Positions 1-50,872 of a stretch of 50,872 nt of DNA are shown here, one piece after another (the first letter of the stretch is position 1; every line of letters starts with the position of its first letter). The position numbers and the translations under genes were made by a program. Location: the NCBI GenBank assembly GCA_028711065.1, contig JAQTSY010000007.1:1-50872 (forward strand), in the 5' to 3' direction. This DNA comes from Minisyncoccota bacterium. Lineage in GTDB: Bacteria > Patescibacteriota > Minisyncoccia > Phycocordibacterales > JAQTLZ01. The notes beneath the pieces were generated by a model. That model did no database searches and was not told where the DNA came from. It saw only the letters and a list, made by a program, of their open reading frames with translations.

Positions 1-132
1 ACCGCCCGTCAACTCAAGGGAACTGGGAGTGCCCGAAGCCTCGTCCTGTACGAGTCTAAGGCAAGCTCAGCGACAGGGAGTAAGTCGTAACAAGGCACGG
101 GTAGCGGAAGCTGCTCGTGGAATATTTCAATT
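1..132 (+). rRNA. rrs: 16S rRNA gene, 3' end (partial)
   Basis: ACCGCCCGTC (1-10), helix 44, AAGTCGTAACAAGG (82-95), helix 45 CACGGGTAGC-GGAA-GCTGCTCGTG (96-119). 3' end placed by alignment to E. coli, approximate. Confidence 0.96.
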
Positions 133-258
133 TGAAAATGTTTTCATTTCTTCGGAAATGCATAACTTACGGCGTCGATTTAGAATGCCTCAATTGAGCA
201 TTCTAAGGTTTATCTAAACTGTAAATAGATTGGCATCTCGGAAAGACGAGAAAAAGGA

Positions 259-298
259 CCCCCCACCACTTTTGGTGCAAATCAAAAGTGGTGGGGGG
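259..298. terminator. 15-bp perfect inverted repeat in 16S trailer (terminator or processing stem)
   Basis: CCCCCCACCACTTTT (259-273) / AAAAGTGGTGGGGGG (284-298). Confidence 0.6.
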
Positions 299-331
299 CA
301 AGAACGGAACAAAACAAAGAATATTTCAAGT

Positions 332-358
332 AAAAACCATCCGAAAGGGTGGTTTTTG
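332..358 (+). terminator. Intrinsic terminator closing the 16S transcript
   Basis: AAAAACCATCC-GAAA-GGGTGGTTTTT hairpin with A- and T-tracts. Confidence 0.7.
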
Positions 359-387
359 CTTGCCTGATTTCCTGCTATACTAAAGTC

Positions 388-762
388 ATGAAAAACATAA
401 TTCAAAAATTGGCTTTTATCATCGCAGTAAGTTTCGGCGCACTTGTGCCAGTGTTGGTTCAAGCTGCAGCGGCAGTCTGTAAATCAAATGGGCAAGTAGT
501 GCCTTGTGGAAATATCGGCTGGCTCATTGGAGGAGTCTTTGGACTTGGAGGAATTTTCCTTCTCATAGCTCTCCTGGGAACCATTTTTTGGATTATGATG
601 CTCATTCATGCTGCTACTCATGATATCCCCAATAAACCTCTCTGGCTCCTTATTATTATTTTCGGTCATCTTCTCGGAGCGATCGTCTATTACTTCTCTG
701 TCAAAAAGAATATGTCTTCTGGTTCGAAAACACCTTCTTCTGGGGCATCCTCGACCACTTAA
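388..762 (+). CDS. Small membrane protein with PLDc_N-like hairpin domain
   Basis: IFWIMMLIHAATHDIPNKPLWLLIIIFGHLLGAIVYYF pattern; N-terminal signal-like segment; ATG 388 lies 6 nt after TG-C-TATACT. Confidence 0.7.
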   Translation: MKNIIQKLAFIIAVSFGALVPVLVQAAAAVCKSNGQVVPCGNIGWLIGGVFGLGGIFLLIALLGTIFWIMMLIHAATHDIPNKPLWLLIIIFGHLLGAIVYYFSVKKNMSSGSKTPSSGASSTT

Positions 763-823: not shown

Positions 824-852
824 TTGACTTTTTACCTAAAATATGCTAATAT
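824..852 (+). promoter_or_regulatory. sigma70 promoter of amidase gene
   Basis: TTGACT-17-TAATAT with TG extended -10. Confidence 0.7.
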
Positions 853-900
853 ACTAGTGGGCCTGTGGAGGGTCCTCGGGCAGGAGAAAGGAGGAGTCCT

Positions 901-1392
901 ATGCGGACCCTCTTCGTTCTACTGTCTTTTGTAAGCTCTGTTTCAATCGCTCACGGAGCGATGGCAGAGCGCAGGGAAACGTCCATGATCATCGTTCACC
1001 ATTCAGCAGGTTTGAATGGTAACGCGCAGATCTTTAGGGATTTCCATGTTCACCAGCGGGGCTGGGAAGACATCGGGTATCACTTTGTGATTTGCAACGG
1101 TCATGGTGGTGGCGACGGTGAAATTGAAACCGGCCGCGCCGAGAATCTCGTTGGGGCTCATGCGGGCAATCCGCATCCCAGCCGAAATCGATTCTCCGTG
1201 GGGATTTGTTTGGTTGGGGAGAATATATTTACTCCCGAACAACTCAAATCCCTGAAGGCAAAGCTCATCGAGCTTTGCCGGAAATACCATATCGTACCCT
1301 CCGCGCAGACCATTCAGAGGCATCATCCTGATTGCCCCGGAACAGGTCTCAACCTTGAGGCGATTATTGCCCAGGTTCAAAAGGAACTATAG
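901..1392 (+). CDS. N-acetylmuramoyl-L-alanine amidase (Amidase_2 / T7-lysozyme-like) with signal peptide
   Basis: IIVHHSAG, GWEDIGYHFVI, GAHA, SVGICLVG, HHPDCPG Zn-amidase motifs; AGGAGG 6 nt before ATG 901. Confidence 0.88.
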   Translation: MRTLFVLLSFVSSVSIAHGAMAERRETSMIIVHHSAGLNGNAQIFRDFHVHQRGWEDIGYHFVICNGHGGGDGEIETGRAENLVGAHAGNPHPSRNRFSVGICLVGENIFTPEQLKSLKAKLIELCRKYHIVPSAQTIQRHHPDCPGTGLNLEAIIAQVQKEL

Positions 1393-1412
1393 ATCTTATT
1401 GTCGAGTTTAAA

Positions 1413-1448
1413 ATAAAGTCGCCGATCACTTTGTGGTCGGCGATTTAT
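1413..1448. terminator. Terminator hairpin after amidase
   Basis: ATAAAGTCGCCGATCAC-TTT-GTGGTCGGCGATTTAT. Confidence 0.7.
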
Positions 1449-1509
1449 CATTATGTTAGAATGAGCTTTGGCTCGGGGGCGTGTAGCGACAGGGAGAGGG
1501 AGGTGCATC

Positions 1510-1737
1510 ATGGCGCGGTGGAACGCGGGCGACAGCGTTGAACAAGACAAACATGAAGCAGATCCAACATTGCTTCAGTCTGTGTTGGAGTACTTTTTAA
1601 ATTTTCCTCTTTCCTTTCTTTACAGGAGAGTGGAAGGTACAAGGTTCCAGGATCTCGGATTTCGGTTCATCGGACGCGTGTTTGAGTGGATCGATCGTCC
1701 CAATGAATTTTCTGGAGAAGCGGGAGGCAAGTCATGA
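1510..1737 (+). CDS. Hypothetical protein (75 aa), SD-led orphan
   Basis: TG-T-TAGAAT (1454-1462), GGAGGTG SD before ATG 1510; ATGA overlap with next ORF; no recognisable domain. Confidence 0.55.
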   Translation: MARWNAGDSVEQDKHEADPTLLQSVLEYFLNFPLSFLYRRVEGTRFQDLGFRFIGRVFEWIDRPNEFSGEAGGKS

Positions 1738-5156: not shown

Positions 5157-5852
5157 ATGGCAACTCTTTATGTCATCGGGACGCCAATAGGTAATCTTGG
5201 AGATATCACGCTCCGCGCACTGGAAGTCCTCAAATCAGTCGATTATGTGCTTTGTGAAGATACCCGCGTGACGGCGAAACTTTTGCATAAATACGAAATT
5301 TCAAAGCCGACGATAAGCTATCATTCGCATAGCGGTCTTTCAAAAGTTGATCATATTATTTCGCTTCTCAAGGACGGCAAAAATCTCGCTCTGGTTTCTG
5401 ACGCAGGAACTCCCGGAATTTCTGATCCAGGTTCGCTTCTTGTTTCGCAAGTGAAAGAAGCTTTAGGAGATGAAGTGAAAATCGTCGCCATTCCCGGACC
5501 CTCGGCGCTTGTCTCTGCTCTCTCCATTTCCGGTGCCCCATCATCTGATTTTCTTTTCCTTGGATTTCTCCCGCACAAAAAAGGGAGAGAGACCCTTTTC
5601 CGGGAGATTGCAAATTCAGAAAGAACTGTGGCTTTTTACGAATCGCCTCATCGAATTGAAAAAGCGCTTGCTTCGCTTCAGAAACATTTCACTGAAAAAA
5701 AACAAGAAGGGAGAAAAATCGCAGTCGCTCGTGAACTCACAAAAGTATTTGAAGAGTGCGTTTCAGGAACTGCGTCAGAGCTTATCGCTCATTTTCAAAA
5801 TCACCAGGATACGGTGCGTGGAGAATTTGTCGTCATTGTTTTTCCCAAATAG
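5157..5852 (+). CDS. rsmI: 16S rRNA (cytidine1402-2'-O)-methyltransferase
   Basis: LYVIGTPIGNLGDITLRAL, LCEDTR, SDAGTPGISDPG, FYESPHR, ARELTK, RGEFV. Confidence 0.96.
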   Translation: MATLYVIGTPIGNLGDITLRALEVLKSVDYVLCEDTRVTAKLLHKYEISKPTISYHSHSGLSKVDHIISLLKDGKNLALVSDAGTPGISDPGSLLVSQVKEALGDEVKIVAIPGPSALVSALSISGAPSSDFLFLGFLPHKKGRETLFREIANSERTVAFYESPHRIEKALASLQKHFTEKKQEGRKIAVARELTKVFEECVSGTASELIAHFQNHQDTVRGEFVVIVFPK

Positions 5853-43506: not shown

Positions 43507-46500
43507 ATGAAATCAAGAACCTTTTCAAAAGCTGGTTCTCTTTTCTTAGCTTTCGCTCTTTTGGCAAAAGCGCTCCTTGACCGTATTCCTTTTTTTGGCG
43601 AGAAAGCAACTCCGCTCGCGAAAAAGGCGGATTTTCCGTTCGGGTTGGATATAAAAAATCTTCCGATTCAACAGTACACAAACACCTCTACATTTTCTGT
43701 ACGGGCTTTTCCAGAATCATCTCTTCCTCCCTCAACACTTCCTCCTTTCACCGCGAAGCTTTCCGCGCTTATCGGAAACACTTTTGAAAATATACTTTCC
43801 TTCACTGCCACTCCCGTTTACGCAACGGCGAATTTCAATAAAGAAATTAATTATCAAGCAAAGCTTCTGGATGCAAGCAGTACTCCTGTCGTGGACGGAA
43901 ATTATAATGTCCGATTCAGCCTGTACACTGCGCCTACCGGCGGCGAACCGATTTGGACAGAAAGTTGGTGCCAATCTCCTGATGGAGGGACAACGTGTGA
44001 TGGAACAGGGGATGATAATCGTGTTTCTGTTTCGGGTGGTTTATTTACGACTCGTCTCGGAAGTATTGCTTCTATCGAGAGCGTTGATTTCAATCAGGTG
44101 CTGTATCTCGGCGTTACCATTGGCGGTTCTGACACAATACCTACGTGGGATGTGGAAATGTCTCCGAGGAAAAAACTCACCGCTTCGGTCGCGTCTCTTG
44201 TGGGCGGAGGTTCAGAGCCTGGGGGGGCATGCGGTTCGTTTCAATTTAATAACAATGGCGATCTTGCTGGTGTTGGAAATTATGGAGTGTGTACTCATAG
44301 CGCTGCCATCGGTTTTTGCGCTGGCAATGGTGGCATCACAGGATTTGATAATATGGTTTTTGGTTCGAATGCCGCTGGTAACGAAGGCACATTCTCCGGA
44401 TGGAACAATGCTATTCTGGGCTCTTGCGCCGCATACTATGGCTTCACAGGTTCTTGTAACACTATCTTGGGCGCTTCAGCGGGCTTTTGCGGAGTAGCCG
44501 GATCTTGCAACTTTATTGCTGGAGTGAGAGCTTGGGGGGGAGATACAAATGGGACGACGGGATATAACAACTCTGTCATTGGTTATCAGGCTGGTTACTC
44601 TGGAGTATGTGGAAATAATAATTTTATCGGGGGTACGTCTGCTGGAGCAGGCTGGGTTTCAGGAAAGATCGGGAAAAATAGCGTAGCGATCGGTACTGAA
44701 GCCGGCTACTGCGGATTCGGCGGCGGGGGTTCTATGGGAGACAGTTTTTATTCCGGTGACAATAATGTGGCGATTGGATATCAGGCAGGTTACTACGGAG
44801 TCTTTGGCATTAACAACTCTATCCTCGGCGCCGGCGCTGGATATTGCGGAATATGTGGCAAGGGCAACACTATCATTGGCCGATACGCATGGGGTGGAGA
44901 TGAGACTGGACAAGGGGGCGGTGAAGGAAATGTGGTCATCGGAAATAAAGCTGGCTTCTGCGGGATTGATGGTTTCCACAATATCGTAGAAGGTTTTCAG
45001 GCCGGCTACTGCGGTCTCTGCGGTAATGGGAATGTTATTCTAGGAAATAAGGCATGGTCAGATGGTGCCTCAGCTGGTGGTCGAGGCAACCTTGTGTTCG
45101 GAAATCACGCAGGCACCGTTGGTGTTTGTGGCGACTATAACACGATCATCGGCCACTGCGCTGCCTATTCTGGTATCACCGGCGGAAATAACTTCATCGC
45201 TGGTACTTCCGCCGGCTATTCTGGTGTCTCTGGCCAAAACAATTTTGTCGGTGGCGCCTGTGCTGCGTATTACGGTCTTTCCGGTCAGGATAACTTTATC
45301 GGTGGTACTTGTGTGGCATTCTGTGGTCTTGGAGGTTCCAACAATATTATTAATGGTACACAGGCTTGGGCTGGCGCAAGCAACACTGTAGATGGCAGCC
45401 TCCCAAATAAGAATACTATCTCCTACCAATCTGGTACTGGTTACAGTGTGAATACAGTTTATAGCCTTGCCGATGGTAATGGTGATGCAAAAATTCTCGT
45501 TACCTCTATTGGATTTACGGGGGGCATTAATGATTTTATTGTTCTGAATGGTGGTTCAGGATATTCAGCGGACGATTACCACACTGTTATAGGGGGTGAC
45601 AATAATGCTTCGCTTAGCTTCACTCCTGTGTCTGCTTCTGCTCCCGGTGGCTCGAACATCGTACTCGGAACGCTCGCTGGCTATTGCGGACTTACCGGCG
45701 ACAGCAACACTATCCTTGGCCGGCAAGCCGCTTTTTGCGGAATCTGCGGGAGCAATAACTTTATCGGCGGAACTTCAGCGGGAGGAAATTGGGGAAGCGG
45801 AAGAGATGGTTCATTTAATACACTTATCGGATATCAGGCCGGGCTTTGCGGTCTGACAAATAGCGGATGCGAAGGTACCGCCATCGGAAATACTATTTTG
45901 GGTTATCAAGCAGTTGGGGACGGCGAAAGTGACATACAAGGTTCATACAATACGGTACTTGGAAGACAGGCCGGCTACTGCGGAGTGGGCGGATGGAATA
46001 ACTTTATTGGAGGTTCGTATGCATGGGGCGGAGATACAAGCTCGCATGTCGGTTCCGATAACGTTTCCCTTGGAACATACTCGGGATACTTCGGCGTTGG
46101 CGGATCCCAAAATATTCTCCTCGGATATCAGGCCGGCTACAATAGCGTTGACGGTTCATGGAACTCGGTCATCGGAGCGAGCGCCGGTTTTTGTGGAGTC
46201 TGCGGAGATAATAACTCGATCATGGGAACGTGTGCTGGAGGCGATTGGCAAGTCGGACGAAGAGGTTCGAACAACGTCATCATGGGAACGAATGCCGGAC
46301 TTTACGGTTTCGGTGGCGGAGCCGTGCAGGGCGAAAATGATTATAGTTTGAATTCAGGAGATCAAAACGTGGCGATCGGCGCATGCGCCGGTTACTTTGG
46401 AATTTCTGGTATCAACAACTTCGTTGGTGGTGCAGGCGCCGGCTATTGCGGAGTCTGCGGAAATGGAAATACGATTCTCGGACGCTTTGCGTGGGGAGGT

Positions 46501-49500
46501 GACGAAGCCGCACAAGGTACGGGAGGTGGGAACGTGGTTCTCGGAAATCACGCTGGTTTCTGTGGAGTGCACGGGTACGGGAATTCGATTCTCGGTTTTT
46601 GTGCGGGCTACTGCGGAGTCTGTGGTGATGGAAATTTGATACAGGGTATCGGTGCCGCTTCTGGCGGAGTAACTCATGGAGCGTACAATATTATTACCGG
46701 AGCGAGCGCAGGCTATTGTGGGATTTCCGCTTCTTACAATATTATTACTGGAAATTACGCCGGCTACTACGGAGTTTGCGGAGAGAAAAATGCCGTCATC
46801 GGGTATCAAGCCGGTTACTGCGGAGTACACGGTCAGTGGAATGTTATTCTCGGAACTTGTGCATGGCAAGACGATCGCTCTGCCCGAACCGGTATTGCAA
46901 ACTCTGTCATCGGATACCAAGCCGGTTACTGTGGAGTCTGCGGAAGCGACAACTCTCTTCTTGGTTCTCAAACAGGCAACTATGGCATTTCAGGATCAAG
47001 TAATAACATTATTGGACACGGTGCCGGCTACTGCGGAATCTGCGGAGATAACAACACTGTCATTGGTTCGGGAGCAGGCAGTGGACTTGCACTCGGGGCG
47101 AATGACAACTTCATTGGCGGAACAAACGCCGGAGGGAATTGGCAAACTGGAAAAGTTGGTTCAGCGAATACTATCTTAGGATATCAGGCGGGCTACTGCG
47201 GAACATCTGCTAGCAACAATGTTATTCTTGGAAGTTACGCTTGGGGGAATGATATACTTGGACGAAACGGCGGAGAGAACTCTGTCATTGGATATTGCGC
47301 GGGCTACTGCGGAATCTGCGGTCATAATAATTCGCTCATCGGAACCAACTCCGGCTACTGCGGAGTCAAAGGATACAACAACTTCATCGCCGGTTTATGC
47401 GCTGGCTTCTGCCAATTGTGGGGGAATGATAATACAATCATCGGCCGAGATGCGTGGGCGAATGATACACTTGGAAGTGGCGGATCTGGCAACTCTGTTA
47501 TCGGTATGTGCGCCGGCTACTGCGGAGTTTGTGGAAACGACAACCTTATTTTTGGTTCAGCTGCAGGCAATAACGGTGTTATCGGAAGCAGCAATACGAT
47601 CATGGGAAATAGTTCCGGTCAGAATGGAGTCTCTGGAAATGACAACATGATTTTTGGAAGTGGCGCTGGACACTCTGGTTTGAGCGGAAGCCAGAACGTC
47701 CTTTTGGGGTACGGAGTCGCTTTTGATGGAAATGTAAGCGGAGGTCATAACGCCGTTATTGGTTATCAAGCCGGCTACTGCGGAGTCTGCGGTGGCAGCA
47801 ACATGATCCTCGGACAGCAAGCAGCGCAAAATGGCATTTGGGGAGGATACAACTTCATCGGCGGTTCGAACGCGTGGGGAAATGATCTCTCTCAAAGTGC
47901 TTTTGGAACAAACAACGTGGTCCTCGGAAATTCTGCCGGCTATTGCGGAATTCACGGAGACTACAACGCGATCATTGGAACAAGCGCGGGTTCGTGCGGA
48001 GTCTTTGCATCTGATAACTTCATTGCGGGCGAGGGAGCATGGGCAAATGACACAACGAGTTCTGCGCATGGTGGATACAATGCAGTTCTCGGCTATCGGG
48101 CCGGCTATAACGGAGTCTCCGGGTATAACAACGCTCTTCTTGGTGCCTGTGCTGGATATTACCCGCTTACCGGTTCATGCAATACAGTGCTCGGCTTTTC
48201 GGCAGGTTACTGCGGAGTTCACGGTTCCTGCAACTTCATTGGCGGAGTGAGAGCTTGGGGAGGAGACGTAGATGGACGAAATGGTTCCAACAACGCCGTC
48301 ATCGGTTATAACGCCGGGAACAGGGGAATTTCTGGAGCAAATAATGTTATTTTGGGCTTTACCGCTGGCTACTGTGGACTCAATTCGAGCTCGAATAATA
48401 ACTTTATTGCTGGCACAGATGCATGGGCAAACGATACTCTTCAATCAGCAAGCGGAGCTGATAATATTGTGCTCGGCTCTCGCGCCGGATACAACGGTAT
48501 CCACGGGAACAGTAACTTTATCGGAGGTTGCGCGGCATGGGCAAATTCCAGCGATGTACTTTCTACCGGTTCTGACAATCTCGTGCTCGGTTCTTGCGCT
48601 GGGTACGGCGGTGTCTATGGTTCTGGCAATGCGATTCTCGGCTACGGCGCTGGAGATAATTGGGGAGTAGGACGAAGCGGTACTTGCAACATCATTATCG
48701 GAGGATACGCGGGGCAAAATGGCATCAATGGAGATTTTAATACTATCATTGGTAATAATGCAGGAAGCCAAGATGTGAACGGCGCTAACAATACCATCAT
48801 CGGTCAATCTGCCGGTACCAATAATAACGGGGGCGATAACTTTATCGGAGGCACCTATGCAGGACAAAATAATAACGGCGCGGGCAATATTATCTTTGGC
48901 TACTGTGCCGGCAGGAGTAATTCTGGCAACAGCAATGAGATGTTCGGAGCGCAAGCCGGACTTAATAATGATGGCAGTGATAACTTCATCGGGGGTTCTT
49001 TTGCTGGTCATGGCAATAACGGCGATCGAAATACTTTGCTGGGTTATTGCGCTGGGTACACTATTGCAAGCGGGGCAGATGACAACACAGTTATCGGTTC
49101 ATGCGCTTGGGCGGGTGATTCCGGGTTTCTCAATGCGGGAGTCAATAACTTAGTGCTCGGTTCTCGTGCTGGTTTTTGTGGAATTTGGGGCGCATGCAAC
49201 ACTGTCCTTGGTTATGGCGCTGGCTACAATGGCGTCTGCGGAACAAATAGTTTTATTGCTGGTACTTGTGCGTGGGGCGGAGCAGCTGGGACTTGCACCG
49301 ACGGAATGAATAATATTGTCATTGGAACCTGCGCTGGTTTCTGTGGAATGGGTGAAAATAATAACATCGCTATCGGTACCTGTGCAGGAAAAAATTCTAT
49401 CTGCGGTTCCTGCAACATTTTCCTTGGGTTTTGTGCTGGCATAGCAAATATTTACGGCTCTTCAAATACGATAATCGGAGCGAATGCGAATGCCGCAACA

Positions 49501-50872
49501 GATAATCTTGTTCGAGCGACTGCGCTCGGCGCCGATGCGATCGTGGGAGAAAATAATTCTGTTGTTATCGGCAGACTCGGCGATCATGTCGGTATCGGCA
49601 CAACTACTCCTGCCTATGCTCTCGAAGTTGCTGGGGATATTAAGATTTCTGATGATGGTTCTGGCAATCACTCGCTTATTTTCAATGATGGTTCCGCAGT
49701 TTCAAGCGCCATCGGTATTTCCGAAGGAGGTTTCGGTATTTGCTCTGATGGTGATTTGAATTTTATTGCTGGTGAAGGCGGAGTTATTAATTTTGAAACA
49801 GTGAATGGTGGTGCAACAACGACAAAACTTTTTGTAAATAATGCGGGGAATGTCGGCATCGGGGTTGGTTCGCCATCTCAAAAGCTTGATGTACTCGGCA
49901 GTATCAATATTAACGGCGGTTCTCACTTCCTTACTGACGGTGCGAACGCTCTTTCGATTCAAAATACCGACAATGTTCTCATTGGTCCGAATGCGGGCAA
50001 CTATTCCATTACGGGCGCGCGAAATGAAATTATCGGTGCTTGCGCAGCCATGGATCTTACTACGGGTACAGGAAACTTCATCGGCGGATATCAGGCGGCT
50101 CAATACAGTACAGACTCATCCAAAGAAATCGTACTCGGATATCAAGCGGGCTACTGCGGACTCTCTGGCGCTGACAACATAGCTATCGGTTCATGTGCTG
50201 GTTACGGCGGGGTCGTGGGAGGCCAGAACTCTCTCATTGGATATCGCGCTGGTTACTCTGGAATCGCAAGTGGTGCCTGCAATAACTTTATCGCTGGCAC
50301 GTACGCTTGGGGAAATAATTCCAGCGCAAATGGCGCAAACAACGTCGTTCTCGGTATTTGCGCTGGCTACGGCGGAGTATATGGAAATGCAAACTCGATC
50401 ATCGGTCAAGACGCTGGAGCAGCATGGCAAGGGGGGCGAACCGGAAGTTGTAACGTGATTCTCGGTTCTTGTTCTGGCTTCTGCGGAATTTCTGGTACCT
50501 TCAATTCTATTATTGGATATCAGGCTGGCGCTTGCGGGGTCGCAGGAAACGGTAACTTCATCGGCGGTGCTGGCGCGTGGGGAGGAGATGAAAGTAATTC
50601 AATGTATGGGGGAGATAATGTCGTCTTAGGAACAAATGCCGGCTTCTGCGGAGTCTGCGGTTCCTCAAACATTATCACTGGTACTTGCGCTGGGCATCAA
50701 GGAGTCTGCGGCGATTACAATATTATCAGTGGTACCTGTGCCGCTTATTTCGGTTCCTGTGGTTCGTACAATATTATCACCGGAGCTTCCGCTGGCTACA
50801 GCGGGGTATGCGGTAATGCCAACATTATTTCCGGCTATCAGGCTGGTGCTGCGGGAGTGGAAGGTAATGAAA
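43507..50872 (+). CDS. Giant Gly/Asn/Cys-rich beta-roll repeat (YadA-head / tail-fibre-like) surface protein, 3'-partial, >=2455 aa
   Basis: Frame 1 translated by hand from ATG 43507 to window end with no stop; INYQAKL..FSLY..GG..W.E..EMSPR N-terminal domain; >100 N-x-[IV]-[IL]-G-x-x-A-G repeats; VGIGTTTP and NVGIG motifs; TATAAT at 43493-43498. Confidence 0.93.
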   Translation, partial: MKSRTFSKAGSLFLAFALLAKALLDRIPFFGEKATPLAKKADFPFGLDIKNLPIQQYTNTSTFSVRAFPESSLPPSTLPPFTAKLSALIGNTFENILSFTATPVYATANFNKEINYQAKLLDASSTPVVDGNYNVRFSLYTAPTGGEPIWTESWCQSPDGGTTCDGTGDDNRVSVSGGLFTTRLGSIASIESVDFNQVLYLGVTIGGSDTIPTWDVEMSPRKKLTASVASLVGGGSEPGGACGSFQFNNNGDLAGVGNYGVCTHSAAIGFCAGNGGITGFDNMVFGSNAAGNEGTFSGWNNAILGSCAAYYGFTGSCNTILGASAGFCGVAGSCNFIAGVRAWGGDTNGTTGYNNSVIGYQAGYSGVCGNNNFIGGTSAGAGWVSGKIGKNSVAIGTEAGYCGFGGGGSMGDSFYSGDNNVAIGYQAGYYGVFGINNSILGAGAGYCGICGKGNTIIGRYAWGGDETGQGGGEGNVVIGNKAGFCGIDGFHNIVEGFQAGYCGLCGNGNVILGNKAWSDGASAGGRGNLVFGNHAGTVGVCGDYNTIIGHCAAYSGITGGNNFIAGTSAGYSGVSGQNNFVGGACAAYYGLSGQDNFIGGTCVAFCGLGGSNNIINGTQAWAGASNTVDGSLPNKNTISYQSGTGYSVNTVYSLADGNGDAKILVTSIGFTGGINDFIVLNGGSGYSADDYHTVIGGDNNASLSFTPVSASAPGGSNIVLGTLAGYCGLTGDSNTILGRQAAFCGICGSNNFIGGTSAGGNWGSGRDGSFNTLIGYQAGLCGLTNSGCEGTAIGNTILGYQAVGDGESDIQGSYNTVLGRQAGYCGVGGWNNFIGGSYAWGGDTSSHVGSDNVSLGTYSGYFGVGGSQNILLGYQAGYNSVDGSWNSVIGASAGFCGVCGDNNSIMGTCAGGDWQVGRRGSNNVIMGTNAGLYGFGGGAVQGENDYSLNSGDQNVAIGACAGYFGISGINNFVGGAGAGYCGVCGNGNTILGRFAWGGDEAAQGTGGGNVVLGNHAGFCGVHGYGNSILGFCAGYCGVCGDGNLIQGIGAASGGVTHGAYNIITGASAGYCGISASYNIITGNYAGYYGVCGEKNAVIGYQAGYCGVHGQWNVILGTCAWQDDRSARTGIANSVIGYQAGYCGVCGSDNSLLGSQTGNYGISGSSNNIIGHGAGYCGICGDNNTVIGSGAGSGLALGANDNFIGGTNAGGNWQTGKVGSANTILGYQAGYCGTSASNNVILGSYAWGNDILGRNGGENSVIGYCAGYCGICGHNNSLIGTNSGYCGVKGYNNFIAGLCAGFCQLWGNDNTIIGRDAWANDTLGSGGSGNSVIGMCAGYCGVCGNDNLIFGSAAGNNGVIGSSNTIMGNSSGQNGVSGNDNMIFGSGAGHSGLSGSQNVLLGYGVAFDGNVSGGHNAVIGYQAGYCGVCGGSNMILGQQAAQNGIWGGYNFIGGSNAWGNDLSQSAFGTNNVVLGNSAGYCGIHGDYNAIIGTSAGSCGVFASDNFIAGEGAWANDTTSSAHGGYNAVLGYRAGYNGVSGYNNALLGACAGYYPLTGSCNTVLGFSAGYCGVHGSCNFIGGVRAWGGDVDGRNGSNNAVIGYNAGNRGISGANNVILGFTAGYCGLNSSSNNNFIAGTDAWANDTLQSASGADNIVLGSRAGYNGIHGNSNFIGGCAAWANSSDVLSTGSDNLVLGSCAGYGGVYGSGNAILGYGAGDNWGVGRSGTCNIIIGGYAGQNGINGDFNTIIGNNAGSQDVNGANNTIIGQSAGTNNNGGDNFIGGTYAGQNNNGAGNIIFGYCAGRSNSGNSNEMFGAQAGLNNDGSDNFIGGSFAGHGNNGDRNTLLGYCAGYTIASGADDNTVIGSCAWAGDSGFLNAGVNNLVLGSRAGFCGIWGACNTVLGYGAGYNGVCGTNSFIAGTCAWGGAAGTCTDGMNNIVIGTCAGFCGMGENNNIAIGTCAGKNSICGSCNIFLGFCAGIANIYGSSNTIIGANANAATDNLVRATALGADAIVGENNSVVIGRLGDHVGIGTTTPAYALEVAGDIKISDDGSGNHSLIFNDGSAVSSAIGISEGGFGICSDGDLNFIAGEGGVINFETVNGGATTTKLFVNNAGNVGIGVGSPSQKLDVLGSININGGSHFLTDGANALSIQNTDNVLIGPNAGNYSITGARNEIIGACAAMDLTTGTGNFIGGYQAAQYSTDSSKEIVLGYQAGYCGLSGADNIAIGSCAGYGGVVGGQNSLIGYRAGYSGIASGACNNFIAGTYAWGNNSSANGANNVVLGICAGYGGVYGNANSIIGQDAGAAWQGGRTGSCNVILGSCSGFCGISGTFNSIIGYQAGACGVAGNGNFIGGAGAWGGDESNSMYGGDNVVLGTNAGFCGVCGSSNIITGTCAGHQGVCGDYNIISGTCAAYFGSCGSYNIITGASAGYSGVCGNANIISGYQAGAAGVEGNE

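Follow-up and report, generated by a model that had tools for sequence, protein, structure and literature searches.

How does a bacterium begin translation when its 16S rRNA no longer carries the sequence that pairs with Shine-Dalgarno (SD) motifs, and why should some of its genes still be preceded by such motifs? These questions are raised by the first 133 nucleotides of the window, by which we mean the whole stretch of 50,872 nt analyzed here, the start of contig C4 in the genome of an ultra-small bacterium of the Paceibacteria (Parcubacteria, CPR/Patescibacteria). The source assembly comprises 973,826 bp in 31 contigs and is 99.4% complete, with a contamination estimate of 1.2%. The explanation that we favor, and consider highly probable as a whole, is that loss of the anti-SD was inherited by the entire order, that native genes lack SD motifs and are in part probably leaderless, and that the SD-led genes were acquired from elsewhere.

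The 3' end of the 16S rRNA and its state across the order

Positions 1-132 match the 3' end of bacterial 16S rRNA (Rfam RF00177, SSU_rRNA_bacteria, 85.9 bits, E 6e-23, exceeding the gathering score of 50), and the match spans model positions 1388-1533. The gene is truncated at its 5' end by the contig start, and the 16S rRNA assembled in the MAG consists of the 3' end only, about 132-146 nt. Three elements can be delimited within it.

1..95, plus strand: 3' minor domain of the 16S rRNA up to helix 45, with the tip of helix 44 shortened (Rfam RF00177)
96..119, plus strand: helix 45, intact (Rfam alignment, all pairs canonical; MFE fold)
120..133, plus strand: 16S 3' tail, GGAAUAUUUCAAUU(U), without the CCUCC anti-SD core (Rfam alignment; order-wide consensus)

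Helix 45 (CACGGGUAGCGGAAGCUGCUCGUG) has a 10-bp stem with zero non-canonical pairs and a GGAA loop, and it directly precedes the tail. In other bacteria, this loop holds two adenines that are methylated by KsgA. The tail at 120-133 reads GGAAUAUUUCAAUU where the canonical sequence is GGAUCACCUCCUUA, and it was aligned to the Rfam consensus GGAUCACCUCCUUu with full posterior probability; a CCUCC in this position is typical of RF00177 members but is not demanded by the model. The nearest downstream CCTCC on the plus strand is at position 1298, within a protein-coding ORF. The original prediction, made from the sequence of this stretch, had claimed that the 16S rRNA lacks its anti-SD tail after an intact helix 45, and the Rfam alignment bears this out in both coordinates and letters. 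It had also placed the loss among those known from a minority of reduced genomes, for which there are indeed precedents (Lim 2012, Amin 2018, Tsurumaki 2022). With the CCUCC core gone, ribosomes that carry the GGAAUAUUUCAAUU tail would be unable to form an SD:anti-SD helix.

The loss is not peculiar to this genome. We compared 80 tails, namely that of the window and those of 79 relatives, about one per GTDB family of the order. Neither CCTCC nor CTCC occurs in any of the 80 within the 16 nt examined after helix 45. The order-wide consensus is GAAUAUUUCAAAUUGAAA, and in this sample the tail positions G1, A2, U4, A5, U7, U8, C9, A10, and A11 are each 83-98% conserved. Two relatives (L011 and L013) have a tail identical to that of the window. 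One further genome (L090; G043:C2, 34269-34502) was dropped from the tally, having an insertion immediately after the universal word AAGUCGUAACAAGG; its 16S rRNA breaks off right after this word and unrelated sequence continues from there, probably as an insertion or intron just before helix 45. The genomes of relatives measure 0.4-1.2 Mb, and their 16S genes are often enlarged by insertions (introns).

Across a sample of the phylum, nearly all tails outside this class are canonical (GGAUCACCUCCUUUCU, GGAUCACCUCCUUUCUAGGGAG, and similar). Within the class, the anti-SD decays stepwise, from CCUCC through UCUCC, UUCUC, and UUUCU to UUUCA, and the intermediates sampled include CACCUCC, AUCUCC, UUCUCC, UUCUCU, CUUCUU, and UUUCUU along with fully AU-rich tails. 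The state of the tail is inherited by the whole order and was reached within the class by stepwise C-to-U and C-to-A decay. Separately, one genome from another class of the phylum (G326:C37:1829-1892) reads GGAUCACUACAUUCUACC, the rest of its family being canonical; the anti-SD core seems to have been lost independently there.

Tail-trailer pairing and the 16S transcription unit

Why should a tail be so conserved if it would no longer pair with mRNA? The trailer that follows it contains a series of structured elements, the first of which involves the tail itself.

125..137, plus strand: mini-hairpin of tail and trailer, UUUCA (125-129), loop AUU, UGAAA (133-137) (covariation in the order)
145..160, plus strand: trailer hairpin 2, CAUUUC-UUCG-GAAAUG, conserved in position and variable in sequence among relatives (fold, relatives)
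166..179, plus strand: conserved trailer motif CUUACggcGUCGAU (recurs in most families of the order)
181..205, plus strand: trailer hairpin 3, UAGAAUGC...GCAUUCUA (MFE fold)
258..299, plus strand: long GC-rich trailer hairpin, 17-18 bp (fold)
302..319, plus strand: 3' strand of the leader-trailer processing helix, GAACGGAACAAAACAAAG (recurs in relatives' trailers)
327..362, plus strand: terminator-like hairpin with a U run (fold)

Most tails of the class stay complementary to the bases that follow them all along the decay series, through compensatory changes. Examples from the class are UCCUU-ucu-AGGGA, UCCU-uuua-AGGA, AUUUCU-uuacu-AGAAAU, and AAUCUU-uuua-GAGAUU; in the order, the pairing is UUUCA-auu-UGAAA, as at 125-137 of the window. 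Furthermore, tails of the order that end in ..CC are accompanied by a downstream GGA in 9 of 10 cases, those that end in ..CA in 2 of 63 (Fisher p 5.5e-9, with phylogeny ignored). Stems of at least 4 bp were found for 64 of the 80 tails against 45 expected, an excess that is only moderate because AU-rich stems form easily. The mini-hairpin is homologous to the ancestral CUCC...GGAG pairing of anti-SD-intact relatives, the 3' strand of which lies in the trailer. The covariation and the retained pairing point to the trailer, rather than mRNA, as the partner that would still constrain the tail bases. We suggest that, in the precursor, the conserved tail pairs with the first trailer bases as a mini-hairpin held by compensatory changes, which would explain why it is still conserved. 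This mini-hairpin would sit in a structured trailer of about 200 nt that is closed by the leader-trailer helix and has the terminator after it.

Of the alternatives to our explanation, the one that survives best, and that we still judge unlikely, is that the tail has been re-purposed, either to read a new mRNA motif under a changed SD/anti-SD code or as a mini-helix kept on the mature 16S rRNA for initiation. Conservation of nine tail positions and covariation of the mini-hairpin could both be expected on these grounds. However, complementarity of upstream regions to the new tail does not exceed that of shuffled sequences (means of -2.71 versus -2.66 kcal/mol, p 0.53), and UGAAA, GAAAU, and UUGAAA have no positional peak ahead of starts. 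In addition, the homology of the hairpin to an ancestral tail-trailer pairing argues against a role on the mature rRNA, given that the 3' strand of that pairing is trailer. A co-evolved new SD was rejected, the k-mer positional scans and the duplex-energy scans both being negative.

The preferred reading, pairing within the precursor, places the tail in a larger structure. The segment from 96 to 365 folds far better than its shuffles (z -10.2), and the motif CUUA..GUCGAU/GUCGGU is found 45-60 nt past helix 45 in most families of the order. Hairpin 3 shows compensatory changes in a congener (G002), where it reads UUCAAUGC...GCAUUGAA, and the congener has a different hairpin at the site of window 258-299. 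We assign 302-319 to the processing helix because the GAACGGAACAAAACAAAG motif of relatives is complementary over at least 16 nt to their own 16S leader, UUUCUUUUGUUCCGUU, which is located 20-60 nt upstream of the 16S 5' end; this pairing was read from relatives with complete genes, the window's own leader being unassembled. Rfam returned no LSU rRNA match for a 23S gene in the 50-kb window. The 16S gene is a stand-alone transcription unit, ended by the terminator-like hairpin.

Several smaller features of this region were noted. A direct repeat of GAAUAUUUCAA is present at 120-130, in the 16S tail, and at 320-330, just past the strand of the processing helix, and the MFE fold pairs both copies with each other because AAUAUU is palindromic. 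The distal copy is confined to the genus and is absent in L011 and L013 despite their identical tail, so we rejected the repeat pairing as functional; it is probably incidental. A displaced anti-SD, GAUUUCCUGCUA at 366-377, resembles GAUCACCUCCUUA by eye in 9 of 13 positions, and it was rejected because it lies past the terminator and serves as the extended -10 box (TGCTATACT) for the gene that follows. CCUCC also turns up in a few of the relatives' trailers (L089 and L097); these occurrences were rejected as well, since hairpin 2, which contains them, varies in sequence and the strings show no conservation.

Genes for tRNA-Leu(CAG) (1984-2066, minus) and tRNA-Ile(GAT) (2237-2312, minus) follow the 16S gene at a distance of about 2 kb and are encoded on the opposite strand. 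The usual site of tRNA-Ile(GAT) is the 16S-23S spacer. The rRNA genes are unlinked here, and the tRNA segment is inverted in the congener (BLAST, 2024-2312 versus 2386-2103). Farther along, 5 kb from the 16S end and downstream of two Mur ligase genes, there is an ORF of the TP_methylase family (5157-5852, plus), which by its family we take to be an RsmI-like 16S rRNA C1402 methyltransferase.

Starts of native genes and of SD-led genes

To what extent do the genes of this bacterium reflect the state of its ribosome? Our gene set consisted of 885 non-overlapping ORFs of at least 100 aa (code 11), covering 84% of the genome. Gene starts came from our own ORF heuristic rather than from a trained gene finder, and class fractions are therefore rough. 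Averaged over all genes, there was no purine-rich signal before starts. We defined native genes by GC3 < 0.48, which yields 691 to 694 genes depending on the filter, and called an SD motif when AGGAGG, GGAGG, or AGGAG was found at a spacing of 4-11.

Such motifs are found in 1.5-2.4% of the native genes, which retain a small surplus of SD-like motifs (18 versus ~8 per bin). What native genes do have is a promoter element at a fixed position. TAnnnT begins most often at -12 (97 of 691 genes versus a background of ~20), with shoulders from -15 to -13, and the extended -10 sequence TGnTAnnnT peaks at -15. The hexamer at -12..-7 is separated from the A of the ATG by 6 nt, and this spacing indicates leaderless mRNAs. 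Some 25% to 40% of native genes carry the -10 hexamer at -12..-7, and we infer that their mRNAs should begin at the start codon. The gene next to the 16S unit provides an example.

373..390, plus strand: native leaderless layout, TGcTATACT, 6 nt, and ATG 388 of ORF 388-762 (PLDc_N) (sequence)

The original prediction had held that core genes are SD-less, in keeping with the loss of the anti-SD, and had proposed a genome-wide free-energy scan of the regions upstream of starts. In that scan, native genes did not differ from shuffled controls in duplex energy, whether the new tail (p 0.53) or the canonical one (p 0.33) was used, which agrees with the claim. Native genes may be adapted to, or may already have been suited for, initiation without SD motifs, with no motif matching the new tail. 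Those that are not leaderless would presumably rely on SD-independent binding of the 30S subunit to A/U-rich leaders with help from an S1-like protein or, alternatively, on coupling to the upstream gene. A search of the source genome revealed an S1-like ORF of 425 aa, and bS21 was not found there.

Relatives provide a comparison. A single-contig genome from another family of the order (G048; 742,714 bp) has one 16S end, also without an anti-SD, and its native genes show the same -10 peak and no SD. In an anti-SD-intact classmate (G553; 400 kb sampled), native genes carry only a weak SD signal and lack a sharp peak at -12, which suggests, from this one genome, that little use was made of SD motifs even before the decay of the anti-SD. 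Our literature search found no paper linking this Parcubacteria lineage to leaderless genes.

A different picture emerges for genes of high GC content. Among the 85 genes with GC3 >= 0.54, 31% are preceded by AGGAGG, GGAGG, or AGGAG; there are 29 SD motifs in the -15..-11 bin against a background of ~1, and the -10 box is not enriched. The GC content of the 52 strong-SD genes is 0.494, versus 0.431 in leaderless-type genes (p ~1e-13), and the SD-led class is complementary to the canonical anti-SD only (-6.55 versus -5.25 kcal/mol, p 2e-5). A Pfam scan of ten of the most GC-rich SD-led genes identified DHDPS/DapA (306 bits), OMP decarboxylase, phosphoribosyltransferase, PRA-CH, an amino-acid kinase with a PUA domain (ProB-like), a Lyase_1 enzyme, and two histidine phosphatases; two of the ten had no Pfam family. 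No DapA was found in 58 other families of the order or in the congener G002, and a more contaminated congener (G001) contains only a 44%-identical DapA match. In the single-contig relative, an SD peak without a -10 peak is seen in the top 10% of genes by GC3.

The original prediction regarded SD-led orphan genes as a puzzle. The genes are real, but the puzzle largely dissolves, since they belong to a compositionally foreign, GC-rich class. Judging from their composition, the distribution of DapA, and the same split in the closed relative, the SD-led genes were likely obtained by horizontal transfer. We propose that they are recent acquisitions that keep the ribosome-binding site of the donor as a fossil and that they are probably translated without using it. 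One such gene lies close to the 16S rRNA.

824..1392, plus strand: SD-led example, promoter TTGACT-17-TAATAT (824-852), leader of ~45 nt, amidase (sequence, Pfam)

In this example, AGGAGG at 889-894 is located six nt ahead of ATG 901, and the ORF at 901-1392, behind AAAGGAGGAG, encodes a secreted N-acetylmuramoyl-L-alanine amidase (Amidase_2) with a GC3 of 0.55. At the same site, the congener has an unrelated secreted ORF of 135 aa behind a conserved promoter and a purine-rich leader (segments compared: window 849-1515 and L134, G002:C1, 982-1588). The 135-aa protein contains an ESGGN motif and looks like a lytic transglycosylase. Secreted cell-wall hydrolases may be exchanged at this site after the 16S unit.

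An argument can be made that the SD motifs of acquired genes are still read, only by a ribosomal protein or another segment of rRNA instead of the 16S tail. If true, this would amount to a separate initiation channel for imported genes. The sole hint of SD reading is that the congener keeps the purine-rich leader GGGCAGGAGAAAGGrGG before its own, different gene for a secreted cell-wall hydrolase; at 86% identity, neutral similarity would explain the shared leader equally well, and we consider such a channel improbable.

More doubtful still is the idea that a CCUCC anti-SD comes from another 16S copy or from a distinct small RNA, such that specialized ribosomes read the SD-led genes. These genes do show very good complementarity to the canonical tail. 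For example, at about position 597,598 of the single-contig relative (G048:C1; L166), the sequence AAGGAGGUGAUC, a 12-nt perfect complement of the canonical anti-SD, stands 3 nt before an ATG, the gene behind it being a GC-rich, low-complexity ORF. Moreover, the rRNA region of the MAG is incomplete. Yet the source assembly contains a single AAGUCGUAACAAGG site and no GGAUCACCUCCUU in an rRNA-like context, and Rfam reported no further rRNA-like element in the window. The closed relative has a single 16S end, and of its two GATCACCTCCTT sites one is the antisense strand of an SD and the other is coding sequence. Of 151 genomes sampled across the order, 108 contain AAGUCGUAACAAGG; each has it once, apart from a fragmented one (G065) with two sites, both at contig ends. 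BLAST searches of the source assembly with the 16S genes of relatives returned C4:1-132 and no other 16S piece; an Rfam search of the whole assembly returned no matches and missed even the 1-132 fragment. The one site of GATCACCTCC in the assembly is in coding sequence, and none of the matches to CACCTCCTT or ACCTCCTTT follows a helix-45-like sequence, several of them being antisense of SD sites. Window 1-132 thus appears to be the sole 16S rRNA gene of this bacterium, and a second copy with CCUCC, for which the original prediction had recommended a search, was not found in the assembly by AAGUCGUAACAAGG count, BLAST, or GGAUCACCUCCUU context.

Contamination of the MAG bin by another organism could also account for the SD-led genes, and the 1.2% contamination estimate leaves some room for it. 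Small contigs are also enriched in SD-led genes (13 of 99 versus 39 of 786) and depleted in leaderless-type genes. Nevertheless, 39 of the 52 SD-led genes are inside large contigs among native genes; contig C17 (147 kb), for instance, contains DapA, and the amidase gene begins 770 nt past the 16S rRNA. The single-contig relative has the same GC-rich, SD-led minority, from which it follows that transfer is the likely explanation; contamination is rejected as very improbable. Finally, an assembly or binning artefact, in which a chimeric contig end hides a true 16S rRNA that ends in CCUCC, might be suspected from a gene cut at the contig start with its remainder absent from the MAG, but the congener (G002; L112) matches the window letter for letter in the tail and for 50 nt into the trailer, and the independent assemblies of 79 other genomes, closed ones included, have the same type of tail after a normal helix 45, which excludes mis-assembly, the outcome that would have undone the original prediction, almost to certainty.

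One further part of the window is atypical in composition. At 43784-50103, eight consecutive ORFs have GC3 >= 0.50 without an SD-like motif or a -10 box at their starts; a possible reading is that the block is an island or consists of ORFs miscalled by the heuristic.

Lineage setting and comparison with known systems

The closest homologues of a Mur ligase from the window are in Candidatus Paceibacterota, Parcubacteria, or Patescibacteria. A search for uL1 (PF00687) had no match in the source genome or in 25 relatives, and 14 of 14 control genomes were positive. By its affiliation, its missing CCUCCU, and its missing uL1, the source genome belongs to an anti-SD-less, uL1-lacking subgroup of the Parcubacteria. 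In its accessible parts, the study that described this subgroup detected an anti-SD motif in only 48% of Parcubacteria and reported that anti-SD-less lineages overlap the uL1-lacking group, with SD helices thought not to form (Tsurumaki et al. 2022, RNA 28:1041; PMC9297842). Our genome is of the same lineage, with CCUCCU missing at the 16S 3' end and uL1 absent. The loss of the anti-SD in this lineage is already published, and the state seen here is inherited and ordinary for it. Those same parts of the study give a detection rate and do not mention the replacement tail, the compensated decay, the leaderless geometry, or the GC-rich SD-led genes. The compensated decay series, the sharp leaderless geometry, and the use of SD motifs plus high GC to mark imports were not found in the literature that we searched.

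Loss of the anti-SD in a minority of reduced genomes goes back to Lim et al. 2012, as cited by later papers. Amin et al. 2018 (PMC6107228) documented it in Chryseobacterium, Elizabethkingia, Riemerella, Blattabacterium, some Mycoplasma, and Candidatus Carsonella; CCUCCU was lost from the 13-nt tail in clustered lineages, SDs were absent where the anti-SD was absent, and no variant SD fitted a variant tail. The native genes described here are like those of the Amin lineages in having no SD and no motif that matches the new tail. Unlike those lineages, ours belongs to another phylum, its loss extends over an entire order with more than 100 GTDB families, there are intermediate states in sister orders, and a foreign class of SD-led genes stands apart.

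Mycobacterium and Deinococcus keep a canonical anti-SD, and their leadered genes use SD motifs. As in these leaderless-rich bacteria, TAnnnT is found here at a fixed short distance before the start codon in a large share of genes, implying 5'-terminal AUGs; unlike in them, the anti-SD is gone and SD motifs are limited to GC-rich acquired genes. Both genera figure as leaderless-rich in the accessible parts of Zheng et al. 2011 (PMC3160421) and of the work defining group C of GeneMarkS-2 (PMC6028130). Bacteroidetes-type systems, in which the anti-SD is present but sequestered, are functionally similar in their SD-independent initiation; our genome is not a member, its anti-SD being absent. Mammalian mitochondrial mRNAs are largely leaderless. 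The small-subunit rRNA of these organelles also lacks an anti-SD (PMC10582724). With ~13 mRNAs and dedicated protein factors, mitochondria differ from the present case, and the likeness is one of analogy only, not of relatedness.

The mini-hairpin, too, has a counterpart. In the pre-16S rRNA of B. subtilis rrn operons, tail and trailer pair as CCUCCUUUCUAAGGA. Similarly, in Patescibacteria with an intact anti-SD, bases at and behind the anti-SD are paired with the beginning of the spacer or trailer (CUCC...GGAG or UCCUU...AAGGA). Unlike in the Bacillus type, both strands have mutated in this order (UUUCA...UGAAA), and the pairing was kept as the anti-SD was lost.

These findings have practical implications. 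When such genomes are annotated, ribosome-binding sites should not be expected, and start codons would best be set 6 nt past the -10 box. An SD motif combined with high GC3 could serve as a practical flag for horizontally acquired genes, among them rare biosynthetic enzymes in otherwise auxotrophic CPR bacteria.

One candidate for a cause of the decay is the loss of Era, which binds GAUCACCUCC. Of 171 genomes of the class, 170 lack Era, anti-SD-intact members included. Loss of Era therefore preceded the decay of the anti-SD. Era loss was rejected as the trigger, given that Era is also gone where the anti-SD is intact; it may have been permissive at most and does not explain the decay. With Era already lost, the class represents a natural graded series from CCUCC to UUUCA, which could be used to order the steps by which SD-dependent initiation is abandoned.
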